This document shows, piece by piece, positions 38,441 through 61,033 of a stretch of 64,000 nucleotides of DNA; within the stretch, counting starts at the first letter, position 1; each line of letters opens with the position of its first letter. The notes beneath the pieces are model-generated. The model was not told where the DNA came from. It made no database searches and saw only the letters and a list, made by a program, of their open reading frames with translations. The stretch is from a virus. Position numbers and translations under genes: made by a program. The stretch lies in the UHGV virus genome UHGV-1378817; one strand, given 5' to 3'.

Positions 38441-39997
38441 TTAATTTTCCATGTTGGATATGGAATTATCTCTGGTTGATGACATCTTAGAAGTGCCGTT
38501 GCCAGTGGATCCTGCAGCCATTCCATCACCAGCCCTACTAATGTCCTGGCCCAAGAGCTTCATCAGCTCTTCCTGATCCATGTCCTCGTCAAATCTTTCA
38601 TCAAACCCGCCTACTTCAAGAATCTTATTAATTACTGCAGGAGTTTTTGGCAAGTAACCTACAGCACCGATCCTCTGGACAAACTTGGAGAAGCTCTCCA
38701 TATCCACTTCTTCAATCAGACCAGGTTTCAGTTTAGGCATATCATCATCTTCAAGGATGATACCATTCAATGCCAGAAGCTGTGGAATAAGATCTTTATT
38801 GAAGGCCTCAGTGATAATATCTATATCACGCTGAACAAAATGACCATGGATAGACTGTTTTGACTCAGACAGAGAGAAGGACCCAACGTTATCGTTACCG
38901 AGGTTAATAAAGCCAGCACCGAAACGGTCAAGAATCGCCTTCTTACGGGCATCAATCAAATCTTTAGTGGAATACTGCTTACCCATACCGTCAACCCCCT
39001 TCAGGGTCATGGAGTAAAGCTCTTTACCAGACTTATCTCTATCAGACGGAAGTATAAAGAAACTTTGCTCACCACTATGGGCGTTTGCTGCGTCAAGCAT
39101 AAGGTCTGCAACCATTCTCCCTTCCATTGAATTCGGGTCAATGCTGGCCTTGTTCAAAATATTGGAAGGAATTTTCAGCTCAAGCACACCACCAAGGTCT
39201 TTGGAACAGCCAACAACCTCAAGGTTTTCAATCAGAACTTTCTCACGGAAAGATCTGTAGCAACCTATCATCGGTGACACACCTGCAGGGTTAGATTCTG
39301 TTCCTGACAGGGTCATGAGCATAAGCTTTTTAGCAGGGATGAAAATTTCAGGCTCATTAAAGCCTTTTGAAGGCATTGCAGCAAGAGGTCCAGCCCAGCG
39401 TGCATTCTGAGTGTTTAGAAATGCATTAGGTGATTGATAAATACCTGTCAGTGTTCTACTATTCTTGTCAAAGACAAACGGCTCTGATCTGGACAAACTG
39501 GCCTGAGGTCGGAATGCAATTTTATCAATAAGAAGCATCCCGGTATATTTACCTTCTTTCTCTCTGCGGTATACTTTCTCAAACAGTGAAAAACCATACT
39601 CGTTAAAGGTAGCTGCGCTTCTTGCAATATCTCGAAGAGTTTGTTGGTTTGCCAAATTACGCAAAGAATACTCTATAAGCTCTGCAGCTTTCTTAGAGTC
39701 TTCACTTTTAACATTATAAAGGATCTTAAAATCATTGAATGCTTTCGTGATGAAAACATATTTTGTATCTAAGGCAGTAGCAACTGTGGAATCACATTTC
39801 ATAGTCTCCACTGTGGCAATCAGCTGAGGCCAACGCAATTCCTCAACCATCATAGATTGCGATTCTGCCATAATTTGGGAAAGTGCGCCAGAACCGATCT
39901 CACTCATACGAACATTATGAGTTGGTGCGCCTGCGTTCCCAGATTTATTCACAGTTTTGGCTGTGGCGTTGTGTTTCCTGCGGTTCTTTTTGGACAC
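38441..39997 (-). CDS. portal protein (518 aa)
   Basis: Approx 500-aa ORF immediately downstream of large terminase; basic N-terminus, acidic C-terminus. Confidence 0.65.
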   Translation of the reverse strand: MSKKNRRKHNATAKTVNKSGNAGAPTHNVRMSEIGSGALSQIMAESQSMMVEELRWPQLIATVETMKCDSTVATALDTKYVFITKAFNDFKILYNVKSEDSKKAAELIEYSLRNLANQQTLRDIARSAATFNEYGFSLFEKVYRREKEGKYTGMLLIDKIAFRPQASLSRSEPFVFDKNSRTLTGIYQSPNAFLNTQNARWAGPLAAMPSKGFNEPEIFIPAKKLMLMTLSGTESNPAGVSPMIGCYRSFREKVLIENLEVVGCSKDLGGVLELKIPSNILNKASIDPNSMEGRMVADLMLDAANAHSGEQSFFILPSDRDKSGKELYSMTLKGVDGMGKQYSTKDLIDARKKAILDRFGAGFINLGNDNVGSFSLSESKQSIHGHFVQRDIDIITEAFNKDLIPQLLALNGIILEDDDMPKLKPGLIEEVDMESFSKFVQRIGAVGYLPKTPAVINKILEVGGFDERFDEDMDQEELMKLLGQDISRAGDGMAAGSTGNGTSKMSSTRDNSISNMEN

Positions 39998-40099
39998 AAG
40001 CTTTACCCCTCAAAACAGTATAACAAAATAGCCCTCGTGTTAGAGGGCTAGTATCTCCGATTACTCTATTCTACCACATCTAATTAAGATTGGCAACAC

Positions 40100-41647
40100 T
40101 TAGATAAAACGCTTGAACATAGAAGGTGATGAGATTGATGGAATCACACAAGGAAGTGCTACCTCCTCTTTCTCCAGGAAATTAATCGCAGAAGCTACAC
40201 AGTCGGCCCAGTCGTCTTTTCTATTAAATGTTGATCTTTCCCCGTTGAATTTTTCAAGTTCAGTCAGAAATGCTTCCAGAGTATCAGGATGGAAACTGGA
40301 TTTTACAATCCTCACCATTCCTTGTTGGGCAAGATTGGCAAAAGGTGAGAACCTTGTCAGTTTAGATTTGTTGGAAGGCATTGGGTCTTCTTCAACCCTA
40401 AACCCTTCGGCGAGCAAGGATCTAGAGGAGGTTAAGAACTCACTCTTACCTGCCTGACCTGGGTCCACAGAGAAGACGATTATGCAATCATCACCATCAA
40501 ACTGCGCCTGTTTCCTGATGATCACATCTCGTTCACCAGCCTTTTTACAGAACTTGCCTTCCAGACCTGTGGAATACCTCCCGTCATCCACGTTCTCAGG
40601 ACAATAATCACCGGACAGGTAATAAAAGCCGTCGCTATCTTTACTTACCTTAACACTGGCGGTAAAGTCAGGAAACTTATTACCAGAAGTTCTCTCGGTT
40701 CCTGCCTTATCCCATGCCCTACAAGATACTGATCCAAGGGGCACTCTGTCGGCATCACGAAGGAAAGATCTTTGAAAATAGTTTGCACCCTCAGGCTTTG
40801 CAAACCAGTTACCATGGAGAAGCTGAGCTTTTTCAAGCTCGGGCAGACCTTCAAGGAAAGCAAGGTATTCTGGGTTGTCTCTTAAGCAGACAGGATTATC
40901 GAATATTGTTGCGCCTATAAACGAGAATGACAACGGTCTTGGCTTGATCTCCACACCCAGTCCGTTAACCGTGGTGTATTTCTCTATCAACTCTTCTTTA
41001 GAGTCTCCCCAGATAAATTCACCGTCGCGTCGGATAAAATATCTTTTCTTACCACATTTCTCCGGATCTGGATACCCTTCATCGTCCAACCACCATCTAA
41101 CCAGTTTGGCAAGCATGTGTTCTGAATCGGGGTTACAGCTGATAACCATTCTTGATGGATACTTTGACTGAGATCGCAGACGAGACATCAGATAGTCTAT
41201 CTGCTCCCATTCGAACTGCGTGCCCTCATCGAAGCAAACCATGGTATACTCAAGCCCTTGATGGTTAAGCTTATCTTGTACATACTCCATGTGGCAGTAT
41301 TTTACAACAGCTCCCTTTTTGCTTCTATCCCACTTGCCAGTGTTCGGATCAAACCGTGGAAAAATGAACTTATGATCCTTCTCTCTGAACTTTGGCTTAA
41401 TGTTTTCAGGCAGATCACTATAAATAGCTACTGCTTTAGGCCATAGTCCACCCTCACCTTCCAACTGTGGGGTTGTTCTTCGGAACATAACCACAGAGCT
41501 GTGGGGGTCATCAATAATTTTAAGTGGCATCAATTGCAAGAGGAACGACTTGCCAGACCCTGCGGCACCGCCGATTACCAAAATATCTGCATCGTTTTCG
41601 AGGATCATCTTCTGCTTTTCAGAACACGGTCCGTAAATCTTAGACAT
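40100..41647 (-). CDS. terL: terminase large subunit
   Basis: Walker A GGAAGSGKS near N-terminus (ILVIGGAAGSGKSFLLQ); 515 aa; followed by portal gene. Confidence 0.75.
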   Translation of the reverse strand: MSKIYGPCSEKQKMILENDADILVIGGAAGSGKSFLLQLMPLKIIDDPHSSVVMFRRTTPQLEGEGGLWPKAVAIYSDLPENIKPKFREKDHKFIFPRFDPNTGKWDRSKKGAVVKYCHMEYVQDKLNHQGLEYTMVCFDEGTQFEWEQIDYLMSRLRSQSKYPSRMVISCNPDSEHMLAKLVRWWLDDEGYPDPEKCGKKRYFIRRDGEFIWGDSKEELIEKYTTVNGLGVEIKPRPLSFSFIGATIFDNPVCLRDNPEYLAFLEGLPELEKAQLLHGNWFAKPEGANYFQRSFLRDADRVPLGSVSCRAWDKAGTERTSGNKFPDFTASVKVSKDSDGFYYLSGDYCPENVDDGRYSTGLEGKFCKKAGERDVIIRKQAQFDGDDCIIVFSVDPGQAGKSEFLTSSRSLLAEGFRVEEDPMPSNKSKLTRFSPFANLAQQGMVRIVKSSFHPDTLEAFLTELEKFNGERSTFNRKDDWADCVASAINFLEKEEVALPCVIPSISSPSMFKRFI

Positions 41648-41934
41648 TAACCTCTCTCCTTTGGAAACAGTGTTCTAATATAGTCTTGCAAAATGATCAA
41701 TTTAGCTCTATCATTGCTACAAGACAGATTATTATCCCTCATAATGCCAGAATTCACTGCATCTGGAGCACCTTTCTTCAAAGGCATAGCTTTAGCAGGT
41801 GGTTTCATGGCACCTTCCGGGGGTTTAACAATCAACCTTCCTACATCCGGAGGGTCAATCTTGTATTCTCTCTCAACGCTGGTTGCACACCCACATAATA
41901 ACAAGCACACAATAAACAGTGTAGCAACTCTCAT
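41647..41934 (-). CDS. outer-membrane spanin (Rz1-like lipoprotein)
   Basis: Signal peptide with Cys-containing lipobox-like LLLCGC; Pro-rich mature part; 4-nt overlap with upstream i-spanin-like gene. Confidence 0.55.
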   Translation of the reverse strand: MRVATLFIVCLLLCGCATSVEREYKIDPPDVGRLIVKPPEGAMKPPAKAMPLKKGAPDAVNSGIMRDNNLSCSNDRAKLIILQDYIRTLFPKERG

Positions 41935-42990: not shown

Positions 42991-42995
42991 AAAAA

Positions 42996-43094
42996 GGTGC
43001 TAGGTGATGGAATCGAACCACCTATGTATTCAACGACTACCTCGTCTATTTTCAGGATTAAAAATCCTCGCCCTTGCCAAAGGGCTTACCTAGC
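42996..43094 (-). ncRNA. atypical tRNA-like gene (98 nt), possible pseudo/variant tRNA with UUU anticodon-like loop
   Basis: Perfect 7-bp acceptor GCUAGGU/ACCUAGC, D-arm GCCC-UUUGGCAA-GGGC, T-arm GGUGG-UUCGAUU-CCAUC, but 3' end is CC not CCA and there is a 30-nt extra region between anticodon and T arms. Confidence 0.35.
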
Positions 43095-43100
43095 TCAGTA

Positions 43101-43189
43101 TGTTGACCATGTTGCTAGTCGGCGATGACGACTGTAACATTTGATAATCCGGTTCTGCTTCCGGCTTTCGCTTAATTACAAGGTCAACA
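43101..43189. ncRNA. candidate structured RNA element inside tRNA cluster
   Basis: 8-bp terminal helix UGUUGACC...GGUCAACA encloses about 72 nt with two internal hairpins (AGUCG/CGACU and CCGG/CCGG); does not fold as a canonical tRNA by hand. Confidence 0.2.
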
Positions 43190-43192
43190 ATA

Positions 43193-43283
43193 TGGCTGAG
43201 GGTAATGGAATCGAACCATCATCGAGTCATCCTCAACGGGACGGTTTTCAAGACCGCTTGAGCACCATTGCTCCCTACCCTCA
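43193..43283 (-). tRNA. tRNA-Ser (anticodon UGA), type II
   Basis: 91 nt; acceptor UGAGGGU/ACCCUCA, anticodon stem GCGGU/ACCGU with loop CUUGAAA, long variable arm, T-arm GAUGG-UUCGAUU-CCAUU, discriminator G, encoded CCA. Confidence 0.7.
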
Positions 43284-43397
43284 TTTATAAACAATACTGA
43301 TAATGACACTGATTTTCGAGCAGTTAGTGACTAGTATAAACGACGATAAATATCAATGCCATTATCTGTATGATTTATGCATTTAAAACTATAAATT

Positions 43398-43484
43398 TGG
43401 TGGGGAGTGGTGGAGTCGAACCACCCGAGTCGCAATGACAATAGATTTACAGTCTACACCGCTACCTCTACGGGATAACTCCCC
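43398..43484 (-). tRNA. tRNA-Tyr (anticodon GUA), type II
   Basis: 87 nt; acceptor GGGGAGU/ACUCCCC, anticodon arm GUAGA-CUGUAAA-UCUAU, long variable arm, T-arm GGUGG-UUCGACU-CCACC, encoded CCA. Confidence 0.8.
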
Positions 43485-43621: not shown

Positions 43622-43650
43622 ATATTACACTGTTAAGCAAAGTTTGTCAA
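43622..43650 (-). promoter_or_regulatory. near-consensus sigma70-type promoter for the tRNA cluster (TTGACA-17-TAATAT)
   Basis: Minus strand reads TTGACA AACTTTGCTTAACAGTG TAATAT; predicted start about 50 nt upstream of tRNA-Arg 5' end. Confidence 0.5.
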
Positions 43651-46501: not shown

Positions 46502-47056
46502 TTACTCCCCGCTGTCAATAGCAAGACTCATTGCAATACTGTATGCCTCTTCTAATGGTAAGAGTCTACCCCACACATCCCAACCGACATCAAACTGCCT
46601 GCCAAACAACTGTTGTGTGGTTCCGTGAGCATGACCGAACAGTTGTACTGATCCGTGAGGCTTTCTGTTCCACTTTGCAAACTGGTAATGGCTCATACAG
46701 ATCAAATTCTTGTTGTGGCGAAGCTCGTAATAATCTACAACCTCATGATAGAACTCTTTCATAATTCTGACAGTCGTCCTTGTGTCATGGTTGCCACGAA
46801 CAAGAATAATATGTCCGTTCAACATATTTAGAATATCTGGAAGTAAGTTGTTGATATTTTTATCAGTAGTGCACGCAATATCTCCCAAGTGGAACACAGT
46901 GTCTGCAGGTGACACAACAGAGTTCCACTCGGCGATGATTCCCGCATTCATACTGTCAAGATTGTGATCATACTGAGATCTGTGTTTTTGACATGAATCA
47001 AACTCCATGACCCGCTGGTGGAGAAAGTGTGTGTCGCTTGTTACAAAGTATTTCAT
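46502..47056 (-). CDS. calcineurin-like metallophosphoesterase (candidate RNA-repair phosphatase), start revised
   Basis: Motifs SDTHF, HLGDIA, VRGNHD, FGHAHG; ATG at 47056 (MKYFVTSDTHF) lies just past the stop of the kinase gene; track ORF extends to 47161. Confidence 0.65.
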   Translation of the reverse strand: MKYFVTSDTHFLHQRVMEFDSCQKHRSQYDHNLDSMNAGIIAEWNSVVSPADTVFHLGDIACTTDKNINNLLPDILNMLNGHIILVRGNHDTRTTVRIMKEFYHEVVDYYELRHNKNLICMSHYQFAKWNRKPHGSVQLFGHAHGTTQQLFGRQFDVGWDVWGRLLPLEEAYSIAMSLAIDSGE

Positions 47057-47063
47057 ACATTCC

Positions 47064-47474
47064 TCATTTAAGTTTAATGCAGTTTTTAAGCTGGCGTTCC
47101 ATACGATCCACAACCCTGTCTGGAACATCATGAATGCTTTTATTACCGTGTCGGTTTTCAACCACGATTACGGTATAATTATACCCATGGCTGATTGCCA
47201 TGTCAACATATTCTTGCACATGTTTTTCTTTTGTAAACGTATTACTTACCACGATACGGTCGTATCCCATACGCATCATATCTTCTACGTTATCTTTGCA
47301 CCATTTTGCTGCAAGTGTTACTTTACTTGCATCCCAGTTGTAATTGCCGTCATCGTCGTACCAGAACATGTCGTTCTCAAAATGTGGATACAGACCTTCT
47401 AAAGATAGCGCATTTGCCAGTGTTGATTTGCCAGACCCTGGTAGACCACGCACGATATATAGCATTTTAGACAT
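47064..47474 (-). CDS. P-loop kinase, polynucleotide kinase-like, start revised
   Basis: Walker A GLPGSGKST (as in T4 Pnk kinase domain); ATG at 47474 with GGAGG SD; track ORF extends to 47531. Confidence 0.6.
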   Translation of the reverse strand: MSKMLYIVRGLPGSGKSTLANALSLEGLYPHFENDMFWYDDDGNYNWDASKVTLAAKWCKDNVEDMMRMGYDRIVVSNTFTKEKHVQEYVDMAISHGYNYTVIVVENRHGNKSIHDVPDRVVDRMERQLKNCIKLK

Positions 47475-47502
47475 AGTAATCCTCCGTTTTAATTTCAAAG
47501 AT

Positions 47503-47531
47503 AGTATACCTAACTGTTTTGTTAATTTCAA
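47503..47531 (-). promoter_or_regulatory. candidate promoter TTGAAA-17-TATACT for kinase/phosphatase operon
   Basis: Minus strand reads TTGAAA TTAACAAAACAGTTAGG TATACT in the 100-nt divergent intergenic region. Confidence 0.4.
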
Positions 47532-47592
47532 GTGTTGACACTAGGTTATTTGTGTGGCAGGATAGACTGACAAAATGACAAATGAGGAACGT

Positions 47593-48510
47593 ATGATGAA
47601 GTATTTTAATGCAGACGACCTAGTTGACAAAGGTCTTGTAACCAGTAGATATTACCCAGATCTTGGGTTAAAGATCTATAAATACGCCAGAAAAGTATTT
47701 TACAACAATTTATGGCATTTGTCCCCTCGTTTACTGGAGTGCCGAGGCATTGTTGTCGGTAATGAAGGAAATGTTGTGGCATGGCCCTTCACAAAAGTGT
47801 TTAACTTGGGAGAAAACTCCACCAACCTGCCTGACAATAAGCTTGTGACGGCGGTAGAGAAAAAGAACGGATTCCTTGGTGTGGTATCATCTCATAAAGG
47901 TGAACTATTGTTCTCAACAACCGGATCTCTTGATTCTCCATATTGTAACCTTGCAAAGGAAACCATCCAGGAGCAATGCGGTAATTTAGATCTTATCAAG
48001 AAGGTTATGGGCAATGAAAACATGACATTCATGTTTGAAATTTGTCACCCTTCAGATCCGCATATTGTTCAGGAAGATCATGGCGCATATTTGATAGGTT
48101 GCAGGTATAATGATTCTGGAATAATGCTACCAGAGGCAGCTTTAGATGGGATTGCCAAATACCTTGGTGCAAAACGTCCTCACACTGTGCGTGAAATTCC
48201 GTTCAGCTATGCAAAAGAATTGGCTGCAGAAACAAGAGGTGAAGGGTATATGATTCGTAAGCCTTACTATCCTTATGATCTGCAGCTGAAGATCAAGTCT
48301 CCATACTATCTGGCACGGAAGGCCGTAATGAGGGGTAAAGCTTGGAAGATTTGGGATGATGATATCTTTAAACGTGTTGACGAAGAGTTTTACGGCATGG
48401 TAAACTTCATTCGCAACAACTACACAGAGGATGTATGGAACTGCCTCCTGGAGCAGGAACGCCGTGAGATACTTGACTACTATTTCCACAACGAGGACTA
48501 TATGCAATGA
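47593..48510 (+). CDS. nucleotidyltransferase-superfamily ligase, RNA-ligase-like
   Basis: Motif I KKNGF (KxNG), motif IV-like EGYMIRK, motif V-like LKIKSP; start taken at ATG 47593 after GAGGA (track 47575); a TTGACA -35-like hexamer lies upstream at 47535. Confidence 0.5.
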   Translation: MMKYFNADDLVDKGLVTSRYYPDLGLKIYKYARKVFYNNLWHLSPRLLECRGIVVGNEGNVVAWPFTKVFNLGENSTNLPDNKLVTAVEKKNGFLGVVSSHKGELLFSTTGSLDSPYCNLAKETIQEQCGNLDLIKKVMGNENMTFMFEICHPSDPHIVQEDHGAYLIGCRYNDSGIMLPEAALDGIAKYLGAKRPHTVREIPFSYAKELAAETRGEGYMIRKPYYPYDLQLKIKSPYYLARKAVMRGKAWKIWDDDIFKRVDEEFYGMVNFIRNNYTEDVWNCLLEQERREILDYYFHNEDYMQ

Positions 48511-48857
48511 AGAAGTTGATTGTGTGGCTGGATGACTTGAGAGACCCGTCAAATTATGGGCTCCCAGACGCTATTTGGCTAAAGAATTCCTCCGAGTTTA
48601 TGGATTTTATTAACGATAATAGAAAGCTCTACAGACGCGTTTCTGAGTGGCATATGGACAACGACCTTGGAGAGGTATTAGAAGGGTACGATTGTCTATC
48701 TATGTTGGAGGAAAAATTTGTATTTGGTAAGCCTCCTGTAGTTGACAACGTGAAGATTTTCGTGCATACTTCTAACCCATCAGCTGCTCGTAAATTCATG
48801 CTTGCAGCTGACTCGTTTAAAAAGTTTGGAATAGAGATTAAACAAAACATCTACTGA
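48507..48857 (+). CDS. hypothetical protein (116 aa), receiver-like fold suspected
   Basis: ATGA overlap with upstream gene; pattern IVWLDDLRD...WHMDNDLG...VKIFVHTSNP loosely resembles a CheY-like receiver topology (weak). Confidence 0.4.
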   Translation: MKKLIVWLDDLRDPSNYGLPDAIWLKNSSEFMDFINDNRKLYRRVSEWHMDNDLGEVLEGYDCLSMLEEKFVFGKPPVVDNVKIFVHTSNPSAARKFMLAADSFKKFGIEIKQNIY

Positions 48858-48865
48858 GGACACTT

Positions 48866-49627
48866 ATGCGACGACTTATTATTATCTCCGGTGCTGGTTT
48901 GAGCGCTGAATCTGGTATTCCCACTTTCCGATCTGGTAGCACTGCAATGTGGGAGAATTTCAGCATCGATGAGGTGTGCAACATCCACACCTTTGCCAAG
49001 AACTACTATAAGGTGCATGACTTTTACAATGCACGTCGTGTAGCTCTAGGCAGTGTTGAGCCTAACCTTGCACATCTTCGGATCGCTGAGTGGTATTCCC
49101 GCTGGTCTGGTCGTGTGATCAACCTTACCACCAATGTAGATGATTTGCTGGAGCGTGCTGGTGTAAAACATGAAGATATTTTACATGTCCACGGGTATTT
49201 GCCAGAAATAGTCTATGAGGACGATGAAGGAAGTGACGTCATTAAGGACATTGGATACTCTGAGGTAGACGCAGGAAAGTATACCTGGGTTAAGCCTAAT
49301 GTGGTGTTCTTCGGAGAAGTAGCTCCGAAGTATACAGACATGTATGACCTGTTGACTTCTCTTACGAGCAATGATATGGTTATCCTTGTAGGGTGCTCCA
49401 ACACAGTTATCAATTTTAACTGGGAGCTATTCCCTGCCTGCAATAAGGGAACAAAACTGCTGATCGTTAACAAATACGACTCACAGCAGCTAGGGGAGAA
49501 TGGCATTTCACGTAGTGATATTTACCAATATGAGGATCGCGGCATCCCAGTTTGGTTTAACGGGGCGGTTGATGCTTTCTCTGATAAAACATTCATTGAG
49601 ACCGTAGAAAACTTTATGGAACTTTAA
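48866..49627 (+). CDS. Sir2-family NAD-dependent protein (sirtuin-like)
   Basis: GAGLSAESGIPTFR matches the sirtuin GAGIS..SGIP.FR motif; later TTNVDDLLERAG and HG..P blocks; GAGGA SD. Confidence 0.7.
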   Translation: MRRLIIISGAGLSAESGIPTFRSGSTAMWENFSIDEVCNIHTFAKNYYKVHDFYNARRVALGSVEPNLAHLRIAEWYSRWSGRVINLTTNVDDLLERAGVKHEDILHVHGYLPEIVYEDDEGSDVIKDIGYSEVDAGKYTWVKPNVVFFGEVAPKYTDMYDLLTSLTSNDMVILVGCSNTVINFNWELFPACNKGTKLLIVNKYDSQQLGENGISRSDIYQYEDRGIPVWFNGAVDAFSDKTFIETVENFMEL

Positions 49628-57931: not shown

Positions 57932-58915
57932 ATGATGACAAAGTTAACTCTTGAGCAAATTTTAACACTAAAGCAACAGGGATACACTAATAGACAAATT
58001 GCTCGTGAATTTTTAGGCCGTGAGTCACGTGAGAGCTGGATCCGACTACAGCTTAAACGTGCACAAGAGAATATGTCAGAGATTGTAGGAGAAGCAACGG
58101 AGCGCTTCCTTGAAGAGCACAAAGGTGCTAAAGTTTGGGTGTATGATACAGAGACATCTCCAACAAACGGCTGGTTCTTTGGGCACTATAAGACCAACAT
58201 TCAAACCTGCGGTATTGAAATTATGCCCTACATGCTAACTTTCGCAGGTAAGTGGTTAGACAGTCCTAGTGTGGTTGACTGCGCTCTTCCTGATTACAAA
58301 ATGTGGGATGAGGATATTCACAATGATCTCGAATTGATTCAGGATTTGTGGTATTATCTGGATACATGTGATGTCGCAGTAGCCCACAATTCAGGTTTTG
58401 ACTGTGGGTGGGCCAACCAACGATTTGCATTTCACGGATTGCCTCCAACAAGCCCCTACAAAGAGGTTGACACCCTTAAAATGATCAAGAAGGCATTCCG
58501 TTTGAATGCAAACACTTTGGAGTATGCATGCAAATACTTCCAACTTGCCCGACAGAAACTGATTGACCACACATTTGAAATGTGGATCAAGTGTGTTCAC
58601 GGTGATCTTGAGGCGTTTAAACAGATGCGGGAGTACAATGTTGGCGATATCCTATCTCTGGAAGGCCTGTATTTGCTGGCTCGCCCGTTTGCTAAGCAGC
58701 ACCCCAACATGTCATTGTACTACCAGGATGAGGAGCCAAAAGTTCGTTGCCCACGCTGTGGTGGAGAACACCTTCACGAGGAAGAAGCTTTGGCGTATAC
58801 TCAACTGAGTGCATTTAAAACATACCGCTGCGAAGGTTGTGGATCTGTTGTTCGTGACCGTAACAACATCCGCACCAGAGAAGAAATGAAAAATACCCTG
58901 ATTCAGATAATCTAA
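57932..58915 (+). CDS. DEDD-family 3'-5' exonuclease with N-terminal HTH
   Basis: Exo I VYDTETS, Exo II AVAHNSGFD, Exo III region HGDLEAF..Y..D; N-terminal LKQQGYTNRQIAREF HTH-like. Confidence 0.6.
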   Translation: MMTKLTLEQILTLKQQGYTNRQIAREFLGRESRESWIRLQLKRAQENMSEIVGEATERFLEEHKGAKVWVYDTETSPTNGWFFGHYKTNIQTCGIEIMPYMLTFAGKWLDSPSVVDCALPDYKMWDEDIHNDLELIQDLWYYLDTCDVAVAHNSGFDCGWANQRFAFHGLPPTSPYKEVDTLKMIKKAFRLNANTLEYACKYFQLARQKLIDHTFEMWIKCVHGDLEAFKQMREYNVGDILSLEGLYLLARPFAKQHPNMSLYYQDEEPKVRCPRCGGEHLHEEEALAYTQLSAFKTYRCEGCGSVVRDRNNIRTREEMKNTLIQII

Positions 58916-58923
58916 CAATTATA

Positions 58924-58951
58924 GGGAGGCTTGCGCCTCCCTTTTCCTTTT
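58924..58951 (+). terminator. intrinsic terminator
   Basis: GGGAGGC-UUGC-GCCUCCC perfect 7-bp stem followed by UUUUCCUUUU, directly after exonuclease stop. Confidence 0.6.
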
Positions 58952-58960
58952 GGAGGCACT

Positions 58961-59779
58961 TTGAGCAAGAAAGAGTCCAACGACAAATACTACACAAACC
59001 CTGAGTATGCAGAATATCTTGTTGGTAAAGTAAAAGATAAGTATGGGAATTGTGCATACGTTGAGCCTTCTGCTGGAAGGGGTTCTTTTTCAAAACTATT
59101 TTCAGAGATACTGTCGTACGATTTAGTACCAGATCCTGAATTTGAAGGACCAACACCGTGCATTCAGGCAAACTTCTTGGAGGTGCATCCCAAGGCAGAT
59201 GTCTTCATAGGTAACCCACCATTTGGCAAGAATTCATCCTTAGCTTGCAAATTCTTTAACCATTGTGCATCATTGCTAGAGCTTGGAGGGGCTATAGCCT
59301 TCATCTTGCCACGGACATTTGAAAAAATATTTTTTGCAAACAAACTGGACATGTCGATGCACCTTGTCTACAGCGAAAGGTGCCCTAAGAATTCGTTTTT
59401 ACTTAATGGCAAACCTTATGACGTGCCATGTGTTTTCCAAATTTGGGAGAAAAAGGCGTGCAATAGGGATCCTGTAGAGATTGGAGAGAATAAGTTATTT
59501 TCTTTTAGCACACCAGATGACTACGACTTCTGTGTAAGACGTGTTGGGTATAATGCTGGAAAAGTATTGGGGGATGATGACCCAAAATCTGAAGAATCAA
59601 CATATTTCATAAAATCTTTAGTTAACGGTGTTGACAGAGTGTTTGCTGAATGCTATTCTTCTTTTCAAGAAGAAGCAGGTAAGACTGCTGGAATGAAGAG
59701 TATAGGTAAGAAAGAACTACAATACATTTTGGAGACCAGGTATGATCAAAAGCATAGACTTGACCAAAGAACTTACTGA
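58961..59779 (+). CDS. DNA amino-methyltransferase (N6-adenine or N4-cytosine class)
   Basis: Motif I YVEPSAGRGSF then motif IV FIGNPPFGK (NPPF); start moved from track 58931 (inside terminator hairpin) to in-frame TTG 58961 after GGAGG. Confidence 0.6.
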   Translation: MSKKESNDKYYTNPEYAEYLVGKVKDKYGNCAYVEPSAGRGSFSKLFSEILSYDLVPDPEFEGPTPCIQANFLEVHPKADVFIGNPPFGKNSSLACKFFNHCASLLELGGAIAFILPRTFEKIFFANKLDMSMHLVYSERCPKNSFLLNGKPYDVPCVFQIWEKKACNRDPVEIGENKLFSFSTPDDYDFCVRRVGYNAGKVLGDDDPKSEESTYFIKSLVNGVDRVFAECYSSFQEEAGKTAGMKSIGKKELQYILETRYDQKHRLDQRTY

Positions 59780-60200
59780 TGCAAAAGCTTTTGGTGAGAC
59801 AGCGGTACAAAGAGGACAGGCGATGGGACTGGCACTACCTTTCGTCTTAAAAGAGCACTTTACAGATTTTCAACTTATCAAAGGTGATAAGGGAATGCTT
59901 ATCCTGGAGCATAAGTTGAGTAAGAAACGCTATAAAGTCGTTTTTAATTCTAAAGCTCCAACAAAACTGGGATTCAGAACTTACAATCTTAACCCTTCCT
60001 ACACTAAGGGTGTTGGAAGGGTAGAACAACAGCATTTCAGTGCCAGAGCTTCTTTAGCCCCTTTGATGCTAAATTTCTCAGGGGTGGCTTTAGGATACCT
60101 TGATAAGAAAAGGGTTCTTCATGTTCGTTTCACAGACTTTGTAACGCTTTTAGCTAACAACGAGGTTGATGAGAAGGGACGTGTAAAAACAAACTTCTAA
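59742..60200 (+). CDS. hypothetical protein (152 aa)
   Basis: ORF from track overlapping methyltransferase end; no motif recognised. Confidence 0.4.
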   Translation: MIKSIDLTKELTDAKAFGETAVQRGQAMGLALPFVLKEHFTDFQLIKGDKGMLILEHKLSKKRYKVVFNSKAPTKLGFRTYNLNPSYTKGVGRVEQQHFSARASLAPLMLNFSGVALGYLDKKRVLHVRFTDFVTLLANNEVDEKGRVKTNF

Positions 60201-60215
60201 TAACGCATAGTATGA

Positions 60216-60419
60216 TTGGAGACCGAAATGACACTAGAGTTAACAATTCCAGACAGCTTTTCAGAAAACTTTATCCCAGAAATGATGAGTAAGATGCGAT
60301 CATTGCTTGATCAGATTGAGGAGGCTGTTTGGGAAGACGATGCTGTAGTGGCTAACGAGCTGGTAGATAAGTGTAAAAGTATTATTGATGCAGTTGAAGA
60401 ATACCACGGAGGTTTTTAA
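60216..60419 (+). CDS. hypothetical small acidic protein (67 aa)
   Basis: ORF from track with GGAGA SD; coupled to downstream gene. Confidence 0.4.
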   Translation: METEMTLELTIPDSFSENFIPEMMSKMRSLLDQIEEAVWEDDAVVANELVDKCKSIIDAVEEYHGGF

Positions 60420-61033
60420 TGGATATTATTGTTCTTAACGCCCCACCCAGCAGTGGTAAGGATCACATTGCAGATCTCTTGTTGGAAGCTATTCCTAACT
60501 CACACCACCGTGAGGTTAAGGAAATGCTCTTCAGTGTGGCAATTAAGGCAGCTGGTGTAACTCCTCAACTCTGGAATGCACTTTATGACCGCCACTACAA
60601 AGAAGAGCCTTGCCCTTTCTTAATGATAGACGGCAAGCATGTTTCTCCGCGAGAATGGATGATCCATTGTAGTGAAAATCTGATTAAACCTATCTTTGGT
60701 GAAGATGCTTTCGGTAAAGCCGCAGTCGCATCTTTGAAGAAAGATTTCCCTGAAGGTAAAGGGGTTATTGTTTACTCCGATGGGGGATTCAAAGAGGAGC
60801 TGGCATGCCTTAGCGAGTACGCATACAGCACAGGTGGAGATCTGTTGTTGTTCCGTATTCACCGTGTAGGATATGACTGGGGAAATGATTCCAGAACCTA
60901 TCTAAGTCTGGAAAAGAACGGAATAAAAGGGGTTGAGTTTGATGTTGTAAACCCTGAAGGTGCACCTTGGGAGTGTGCATCGGAGATTGTGTGCAAGTAT
61001 ATTGATGCTAAAGAGGCCCAAGAAGAATGTTAA
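60419..61033 (+). CDS. deoxynucleoside monophosphate kinase-like
   Basis: N-terminus MDIIVLNAPPSSGKDHIADLL parallels T4 gp1 MKLIFLSGVKRSGKDTTADF as I recall it. Confidence 0.55.
   Translation: MDIIVLNAPPSSGKDHIADLLLEAIPNSHHREVKEMLFSVAIKAAGVTPQLWNALYDRHYKEEPCPFLMIDGKHVSPREWMIHCSENLIKPIFGEDAFGKAAVASLKKDFPEGKGVIVYSDGGFKEELACLSEYAYSTGGDLLLFRIHRVGYDWGNDSRTYLSLEKNGIKGVEFDVVNPEGAPWECASEIVCKYIDAKEAQEEC

Follow-up and report, generated by a model that had tools for sequence, protein, structure and literature searches.

A conserved tRNA-like RNA gene of non-standard build in the tRNA clusters of enterobacterial phages

A tRNA-like gene in the cluster of an rV5-like coliphage

The 64,000-nt stretch of viral DNA UHGV-1378817 (the window, in what follows) is part of the genome of an rV5-like coliphage (Vequintavirus). 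Its minus strand carries, at positions 42996..43094 with the RNA 5' end at 43094, a gene for an RNA resembling transfer RNA (tRNA), located there by ARAGORN, by the Rfam tRNA model and by a covariance model of its own family. This tRNA-like element is a real gene under strong selection for its fold and body, and it does not encode a standard tRNA; its family is restricted to phages and mobile among phage groups. The surrounding tRNA cluster begins with a sigma-70-type promoter (TTGACA-17-TAATAT, 43622..43650, minus strand, 10 of 12 consensus matches) that lies upstream of tRNA-Arg and is annotated P(tRNA) in the rV5 RefSeq record. From this promoter, the minus strand encodes tRNA-Arg(UCU), tRNA-Tyr, a 114-nt spacer, tRNA-Ser(UGA), a 98-nt spacer and the element, followed on its 3' side by five U and then by tRNA-Thr(UGU), tRNA-Met/Ile2(CAU) and tRNA-Pro(UGG). 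The 901-bp stretch around the element is 99.8% identical to phages APECc02, CM1 and others.

Counting the encoded CC, the element is 99 nt long (97 nt up to the discriminator), rather than the 98 nt given in a preliminary description of the locus. That description had also reported a perfect 7-bp acceptor stem, a good D arm and a canonical T arm, all of which were confirmed. The acceptor stem pairs GCUAGGU (43088..43094) with ACCUAGC (42999..43005) over its full 7 bp. A8 and A9 (43086-43087) lie between it and the D arm, GCCC-UUUGGCAA-GGGC (43070..43085), which can alternatively be drawn with a 6-bp stem and a 4-nt loop, as in minimum free energy (MFE) folds and in the alignment to the tRNA-Sec model. 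At the anticodon position is a 15-nt hairpin, AGGAUUUUUAAUCCU (AGGA-UUUUUAA-UCCU, 43054..43068), flanked on either side by an invariant G (43069 and 43053). It can be read as a 4-bp stem with the UUUUUAA loop that had been described or as a 5-bp stem with a UUUUA loop. The oversized extra region with a hairpin of its own also held up, at 31 rather than 30 nt. Ahead of the T arm it comprises a G, the 5' linker AAAAUA (43047..43052), the hairpin GACGA-GGUAG-UCGUU (43032..43046), which is present in the MFE fold, and the 3' linker GAAUACAUA (43023..43031). In the Rfam alignment the T arm, GGUGG-UUCGAUU-CCAUC (43006..43022), has a canonical T-loop and one G.U pair. The gene ends, as first described, with CC and not CCA: discriminator A73 and the encoded CC (42996..42998) are followed by UUUUU (42991-42995), not by A. 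Our analysis added to this picture the minus-strand orientation, an anticodon-position hairpin 2 nt shorter than canonical and the combination of A8 with U14.

The MFE fold of the element is the cloverleaf plus the extra hairpin (z = -3.66), and none of 200 shuffled sequences was as stable. The window copy scored 35.5 bits on the Rfam tRNA model (RF00005; gathering score 29, E = 9.5e-4 for the window), in an alignment with 26 inserted nt, one deleted anticodon-stem position and a non-standard 27:43 pair, and ARAGORN called it tRNA-???. Both ARAGORN and Infernal with Rfam kept the element whole instead of splitting it. Covariation across 29 homologues (below) is decisive, and together with it these values bear out the initial impression of an RNA too well formed to be random.

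Only the rV5-clade copy passes the Rfam tRNA threshold; copies of other clades fall below it or go undetected. ARAGORN made no call for the element in any non-rV5 lineage, and no Rfam model reached threshold on the non-rV5 copies, for which the best result was tRNA-Sec at 23-39 bits (threshold 47), a range equally reached by ordinary Ser and Tyr tRNAs. The phi92-type copy was not detected by Rfam models at all. The Rfam families YrlA, tmRNA and mascRNA were rejected as matches, as their spurious low scores fell on neighbouring tRNAs only. In GenBank, depositors have labelled the same sequence tRNA-OTHER, tRNA-Lys, tRNA-???(atcc) or tRNA-TERM, or have left it out, and across the family the annotations include Lys, Ile, Arg, Ser, TERM, OTHER and 'hypothetical protein', where the gene was not missed. 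The element is not among the six tRNAs listed in the rV5 genome paper (PMC3606486), our literature search found no earlier description of the tRNA-like element, and Rfam has no family for it. This inconsistent annotation would be mended by a dedicated covariance model.

A phage-restricted family under strong selection

Similarity searches and pattern scans recovered 31 distinct versions of the element. Apart from one podovirus, the named carriers belong to two myophage subfamilies, Vequintavirinae and Stephanstirmvirinae. Carriers include Vequintavirus and Avunavirus of E. coli, phi92-like phages (Justusliebigvirus, Stephanstirmvirinae; E. coli), Seunavirus (Salmonella, Cronobacter and Enterobacter), Mydovirus (Klebsiella and Proteus), Henunavirus (Erwinia) and several metagenomic lineages. 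An unexpected carrier was the N4-like podovirus Salmonella phage UTK0002 (Schitoviridae), the copy of which also lies in a tRNA cluster. In all, more than 200 sequenced phages of enterobacteria carry the element, therapy candidates and members of the BASEL collection among them. A covariance model built from the family gave the window copy 103 bits (E = 1e-22) and its members 94-118 bits, with one copy per genome, and the next-best matches were the phages' own long-arm tRNAs (Ser, Tyr and Leu) at no more than 27 bits. A pattern of the most conserved segment had no matches in 185,579 bacterial and archaeal genomes, and a host origin was rejected on the lack of matches in bacterial genomes. Thus, the family is confined to phages and has moved among phage groups.

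Two natural deletions show that the element is dispensable, and hence an accessory gene. In phage V18, the 5' half of tRNA-Tyr has become fused through a deletion to the final third of the element (L005:~955-1042); the acceptor halves of this chimera are mismatched, and tRNA-Ser, two spacers and most of the element are gone. In O157 typing phage 4, only the 3' end of the element is left.

Conservation of the fold was assessed in an alignment of 29 sequences covering the four cloverleaf helices (20 pairs), alongside a 16-sequence version. Standard pairs occupy 99.3% of helix cells, compared with 34-47% when partners are slid by 1-3 columns, and 12 of the 20 pairs have changed on both sides in a compensatory manner. 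The observed covariation score was reached by none of 500 shuffles. Acceptor pairing is preserved among relatives through such changes, with 100% of cells paired and compensatory double changes at five of the seven pairs. Three of four D-stem pairs and two pairs of the T stem (98.6% paired) are likewise compensatory, and the stem of the anticodon-position hairpin covaries. At the elbow, where the second G of the D-loop meets C56 of the T-loop, 18 sequences have G19:C56 and the other 11 have U19:A56, with no exceptions, and this switch is strong evidence that the RNA takes the L-shape of a tRNA.

The body of the element is conserved far beyond its pairing. In the copies of FENT2, NDO71, K54rec2 and contig L035, positions 1-73 are identical except for two loop bases (107 of 109 positions), while their 700-bp flanks are 83-96% identical upstream and 61-88% identical, with many gaps, downstream. 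At 17% divergence, around 18 differences would be expected over 107 nt, which points to intense purifying selection on the body. The chance that four random substitutions on 109 sites would all land on the two N positions of the loop is around 1e-7. As these two positions are the sole differences, they are either the only unconstrained sites or sites of diversifying selection. The compensatory substitutions across genera and the constancy of the body beside flanks that have drifted to 61-96% identity also dispose of the early suggestion of a pseudo-tRNA, in the sense of a decaying tRNA relic.

Build, relatives and surroundings of the element

A canonical tRNA anticodon arm has 17 nt, in which five base pairs close a loop of 7 nt that has U33 and, at position 37, a purine. 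The corresponding hairpin of the family has 15 nt (rV5, Av-05 and UCA types) or 16 nt (Seuna/Mydo type), never 17. In one reading a 5-bp stem carries a 5-6-nt loop (closed by U-A, C-G or C.A), in the other a 4-bp stem carries a 7-8-nt loop, and both leave the arm one helical layer (2 nt) short. Its loops fall into four classes of three lengths: UUUUUAA in the rV5 clade; UUUAUAA in Av-05 and TH18; CAUCAAA or UAUCAAA in Henunavirus, phi92-like and N4-like phages and three metagenomic lineages; and CC-NN-CCAG, where NN is AU, CA, CG, AG, UU or CU, in Seuna/Mydo phages and L053. The widespread class, YAUCAAA, has A33 in place of the U33 of tRNAs. The central loop bases vary the most, whereas an anticodon in use would be expected to be the most conserved part, so in this respect the family is unlike decoding tRNAs.

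Other departures concern the core and the 3' end. A8 and U14 are invariant in the family, whereas tRNAs have U8 and A14, which form a reverse-Hoogsteen pair. The variable region of tRNAs measures 4-5 nt or about 13-21 nt; the extra region of the element measures 31-39 nt across the family, and its linkers, GAAAA... and ...AAUACAUA, are single-stranded and nearly invariant. Between them, the extra-arm hairpin has been swapped wholesale between clades, so that different hairpins occupy the same place, and in the Av-05/TH18 clade it shows a compensatory change from A-U to G-C. The discriminator is U in 24 versions, A in 5 (all in the rV5 clade) and C in 2, and it varies between U and C within the Av-05 clade. 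Outside the E. coli-phage clades, U73-CCA is strictly encoded; within them, the tails read CCU, CAU, ACA, UCA or CCC, compared with CCA in all six canonical tRNAs beside the element in the window. All five rV5-type variants combine the UUU loop with A73, and both features are missing from the sister clade and from the remaining members. Collectively, the element keeps a canonical cloverleaf, with all helices more than 98% paired and a covarying elbow contact, and lacks the 17-nt anticodon arm, the conserved anticodon, U8/A14 and the variable-region length of canonical tRNAs. It had been judged 'not a standard tRNA' at the outset, and the short arm, the four loop classes and A8/U14 put this on firm ground.

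Among known RNAs, the closest in build are the long-arm tRNAs for Leu, Ser and Tyr (RF00005). They share with the element a 7-bp acceptor stem, a 4-bp D stem, a 5-bp T stem, a canonical T-loop, the G18/G19 elbow contacts and an extra arm that separates the anticodon arm from the T arm, and like it they lie in tRNA operons; the element descends from a long-arm tRNA. It differs from them in its 15-16-nt anticodon arm, unconserved loop, A8/U14, varying discriminator and 31-39-nt extra region with long, single-stranded, A-rich linkers. A resemblance to tRNA-Sec (RF01852) lies in the possible 6-bp D stem with a 4-nt loop, the long extra arm, the lack of U8 and the UCA-AAA loop of the widespread class. 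Against this, the acceptor and T stems are 7/5 rather than 8/5, A33 is present, the discriminator is U rather than G and the window copy has UUU. Membership of the tRNA-Sec family was rejected because scores lie below its gathering score of 47, the first acceptor pair is mismatched and ordinary Ser and Tyr tRNAs do equally well; the window copy itself scores higher on the Rfam tRNA model than on the tRNA-Sec model.

Stable RNAs C and D of phage T4 (species 1 and 2 RNAs) are small stable RNAs of unassigned function that, like the element, are encoded in a phage tRNA cluster, and T4 rnaC has a canonical T arm (CCGGG-UUCGAAU-CCCGG) next to its terminal stem. The T4 RNAs are longer (139 and 119 nt) and have no cloverleaf. 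Homology was rejected, as the family model had no match on L057:2909-3172 even at E <= 10, and the likeness is one of analogy only. YrlA (RF02553), the 'tRNA-Other' of B. cereus and the non-proteinogenic tRNA-Gly of Staphylococcus keep elbow and acceptor features of tRNA and are handled by tRNA enzymes without ordinary decoding. The element has no sequence or model match to these mimics (a spurious 25-bit YrlA match lies elsewhere in the cluster), and the tRNA-like module of YrlA is internal to a Ro-binding stem, whereas the acceptor stem of the element is terminal and has a CCA-type end.

A further comparison is with phage tRNAs that withstand host nucleases. The T5 tRNA-Lys that faces PARIS and the phage tRNA-Lys that faces PrrC170 likewise place a Lys-type loop on a non-host stem, in lytic coliphages with tRNA-repair genes (PMC11464382, PMC11555353), and T5 tRNA-Tyr, set against Retron-Eco7, belongs to the same group. 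Those tRNAs are canonical, 76 nt long and shown to decode and to rescue infection; the element is non-canonical, carries loops unrelated across its family and is known from sequence.

Several features of the surrounding cluster are also unusual. Both spacers are predicted to be structured: the 98-nt spacer between tRNA-Ser and the element (43095-43192, minus strand) has a 9-bp terminal stem with the core GUUGACC...GGUCAAC plus internal hairpins (z = -2.6) and may be another processed small RNA, and the A+T-rich 114-nt spacer between tRNA-Tyr and tRNA-Ser (43284-43397, minus strand) forms a long near-perfect hairpin (z = -4.2, 0 of 200 shuffles as stable). The tRNA-Ser(UGA) gene (43193-43283, minus strand) falls below the Rfam tRNA threshold, with tRNA-Sec its best model at 40.2 bits (below 47), and tRNA-Tyr (43398-43484, minus strand) is borderline at 29.9 bits, so the long-arm tRNAs of the cluster are all atypical. 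Relatives contain further odd tRNA-like genes (L016:731-805, L029:192-261, L035:1035-1104, L058:1715-1793, L016:1167-1245 and L004:1298-1380). To some of these ARAGORN assigns two-base 'anticodons' (ga, gt), corresponding to 6-nt loops; others are unannotated and score 35-39 bits on Rfam tRNA or below threshold on tRNA-Sec. Non-canonical anticodon loops may thus recur in these clusters.

Homing-endonuclease genes were observed in two settings. Seunaviruses have an HNH gene in the tRNA cluster shortly downstream of the element (L011:516-1010, L012:1323-1718), a position paralleled by segB inside the T4 tRNA cluster. The RefSeq record of rV5 joins its terminase large subunit from three segments that enclose an HNH endonuclease gene (rV5 58027-60872, corresponding to window positions ~38800-41650). 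Around 18-23 GenBank records (MG0656xx) of 'Campylobacter phage' are near-identical to rV5-like or phi92-like coliphages over the tRNA cluster and RNA ligase, and their host label is probably wrong.

In the phi92-like phage EmilieFrey (L061:14003-15022), a YqeY-like gene adjoins a gene for a 190-aa protein that has no Pfam hit. A stretch of this protein, CYRTEE...HFNIFLKLELIEF, resembles motif 2 of class II aminoacyl-tRNA synthetases, and the protein has no match to a solved structure. Its homologues, known from 273 phage records (E. coli, Acinetobacter, Caulobacter, Microcystis and others), do not share the distribution of the element. The pair was considered as a dedicated protein partner and rejected, as many of its carriers have no found element; neither protein is encoded in the window or within positions 1-100 kb of rV5.

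Possible roles of the element

Around 4 kb from the element, the window encodes a complete RNA 'healing and sealing' set (46502-48857). It consists of a metallophosphoesterase (46502-47161) and a P-loop (AAA_33) kinase-like protein (47064-47531) on the minus strand and an Rnl1-family RNA ligase (47575-48510) and a cyclic-phosphate-processing receiver domain protein (48507-48857) on the plus strand, adjoined by a Sir2-family protein (48866-49627). In T4, equivalent enzymes repair tRNA-Lys cut by the anticodon nuclease PrrC. The module implies that phages of this lineage contend with the cutting of tRNA or other RNA by the host. The Rnl1 ligase is present in all myophage carrier groups and also in many phages without the element, so its co-occurrence with the element is uninformative.

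The role that we favour, tentatively and short of holding it probable, is that of a non-decoding tRNA mimic that would titrate or misdirect a factor acting on tRNA; a tRNA nuclease or transferase of host anti-phage defence is the most plausible candidate. The preliminary description had raised a decoy for an anticodon nuclease, which is compatible with all of our observations and is the direction in which we lean. The element would be transcribed from the strong tRNA-cluster promoter; given this promoter and its place between tRNA genes, tRNA-type processing is presumed, with RNase P cutting at G1, 3' trimming and CCA completion by the host. The product folds into an L-shaped body in which the acceptor and T stems form a 12-bp helix, the D-loop and T-loop meet at the elbow and the core is of the long-arm type. 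Given an anticodon arm one layer short and a loop that is not constant, we propose that the RNA does not decode codons; the short arm would keep it out of translation, leaving it to occupy a factor that recognizes tRNA bodies, such as a tRNA-cleaving or tRNA-modifying anti-phage enzyme of the host. For the rV5 clade, the loop would in addition imitate host tRNA-Lys(UUU), the favourite target of E. coli defence nucleases. Processing as a tRNA, absence of decoding and the decoy role are all inferred here from sequence.

Besides the RNA repair module, two sets of observations provide indirect context for this proposal. E. coli has a single tRNA-Lys species, encoded in all 5,426 genomes (median of 6 copies), and element positions 31-39 (A-UUUUUAA-U) match it (A-CUUUUAA-U) at 8 of 9 bases on an unrelated stem. 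This tRNA-Lys(UUU) is cut by AriB of the PARIS system (PMC11464382), by PrrC170 (PMC11555353) and by a bacterial Schlafen nuclease (PMC13056530). There is also precedent for recognition of the tRNA body, as the parts read by the toxin MenT3 are those conserved in the element family: MenT3, a member of the superfamily that includes the AbiEii abortive-infection toxins, reads the long variable arm, the D/T-loop core and the acceptor-T helix to select its targets, and it acts on their CCA end whatever the anticodon (PMC11162799).

Several points weigh against a decoy that does not decode. A stoichiometric decoy must compete with a very large host tRNA pool. The near-invariant A-rich linkers, and an extra-arm loop (GAAYUAAYAGUAC) shared by several clades, point to a specific partner that need not belong to defence. 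The YAUCAAA loop is conserved across very divergent bodies, so that loop sequence matters at least there. Moreover, when read from the 3' side, every loop class is a legitimate anticodon context (N34-36, A37, R38), and two classes carry matching discriminators, namely UUU with A73, and NCC with U73, G1-C72 and C2-G71. Lysyl-tRNA synthetase (LysRS) recognizes U35 and A73, and the identity set of E. coli glycyl-tRNA synthetase is U73, G1-C72 and C2-G71 with NCC. Such a match of context and discriminator is what anticodon switching in a chargeable RNA would look like.

A bolder proposal, possible in our view if on the unlikely side, takes the element as a mobile phage tRNA chassis, the loop of which would be re-tuned in each lineage (UCA, NCC, UUU or UAU) as an RNA counter-defence. 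It would mimic whichever host tRNA is under attack by local immune nucleases or transferases, and its loop would decide whether it served as a decoy, sacrificial or inhibitory, or as a substitute that cannot be cleaved.

For the rV5 clade only, the element may instead be a cleavage-resistant spare tRNA-Lys, charged by LysRS and decoding AAA and AAG, with its foreign stem, U32 and odd body evading nucleases. We consider this doubtful. In its favour, the loop U32-U33-UUU-A37-A38, closed by A31-U39, gives the near-match to the host tRNA noted above, A73 accompanies UUU in this clade only, and the window copy passes the Rfam tRNA threshold and is annotated tRNA-Lys by several depositors. The rV5-type phages have no other tRNA-Lys (PMC3606486), while phi92-like phages with the UCA-type element do carry a canonical tRNA-Lys(UUU). 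AriB reads the anticodon stem-loop and cleaves the bond joining positions 40 and 41, and T5 tRNA-Lys is resistant through the swap of one stem base pair (PMC11464382); the RNA repair module in the window also indicates that the lineage meets tRNA breakage. The difficulties lie in the build and in the rest of the family. The anticodon arm is short, with either a 4-bp stem that has G.G at one end or a 5-bp stem and a 5-nt loop, the extra region has 31 nt, A8/U14 replaces the tRNA core pair and CCA is not encoded, the tail being CC-U or, in one variant, CA-U. The sister clade maintains the same body by compensatory change with UAU and U73 or C73, which would abolish lysine identity; the remaining family, with its other loops, cannot be tRNA-Lys, and V18 lost the gene with no replacement. 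The early suggestion of a variant tRNA-Lys is therefore one that could hold for the rV5 clade and for no other part of the family.

It is unlikely, in our assessment, that the element is a natural tRNA scaffold, in which the chassis would serve processing and stability and the two displayed hairpins would bind a protein or RNA target unrelated to tRNA-directed defence. The constancy of the chassis fits this idea, as does the wholesale replacement of the extra-arm hairpin, which assorts independently of loop class. So do the conservation of the GAAYUAAYAGUAC loop in the Henunavirus, FENT2-like, L037/L046 and N4-like copies, the retention of YAUCAAA across divergent bodies and the precedent of T4 rnaC, a stable RNA with a T arm and a non-tRNA body in a phage tRNA cluster. 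Yet no target or partner was found, the extra hairpin of the rV5 clade is a minimal 5-bp stem with a variable loop, and nothing in a pure scaffold would call for strict conservation of the A-rich linkers and the D-loop. The sole internal complementarity that we noticed, between UCCA in the loop and UGGA in the extra arm, was considered as a kissing interaction and rejected, as UGGA is absent from FENT2-type copies with the same loop.

More improbable still is a special decoding or chargeable tRNA at the level of the family, descended from a UGA (opal) suppressor that combined a long extra arm with a D arm like that of tRNA-Sec, and later re-targeted to NCC (with an 8-nt loop, possibly for quadruplet decoding or frameshifting), UUU and UAU. 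The UCA-type loop is indeed the most widespread and conserved, the copy in Hena1 is annotated tRNA-sup(tca) and reaches 39 bits on Rfam tRNA-Sec, and discriminator and anticodon match in the UUU and NCC classes. Among stop codons, TGA stands at 8.9% in the phi92-like EmilieFrey compared with 22% in rV5-type sequence (Fisher p = 0.01), a depletion that is confounded by GC content (37.8% versus 44%) and leaves many TGA-terminated genes. In a first, smaller sample, the counts were 4 of 64 and 41 of 181, and the gap shrank with more data. All tRNA-Sec scores lie below 47 and are equalled by Ser and Tyr tRNAs, the acceptor stem has 7 bp rather than 8, A33 replaces U33, and an 8-nt loop with two freely varying bases is not how an anticodon in use evolves.

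A functionless long-arm tRNA relic, or a spacer for RNase P or other processing in the polycistronic tRNA transcript, is very improbable and appears largely refuted: dispensability in V18 and typing phage 4, the non-CCA tail, the defective anticodon arm and the inconsistent annotation would suit it, but every helix and one tertiary pair have evolved by compensatory change, the element stays almost identical beside flanks that have diverged by 4-39%, three phage groups have kept it, an unrelated N4-like phage among them, and a spacer would have no use for its invariant single-stranded linkers.

Phage tRNA genes have recently been recognized as acting against tRNA-cleaving immunity, and, to our knowledge, only ordinary decoding tRNAs have so far been shown to do so. 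If the element is a mimic, as we tentatively propose, this arms race would extend to non-decoding RNA mimics; otherwise, the element may reveal an unusual, nuclease-proof build of tRNA. Should its loop prove to be re-tuned in each lineage, the family would represent a new class of anti-defence non-coding RNA common to rV5-like, phi92-like and N4-like phages.

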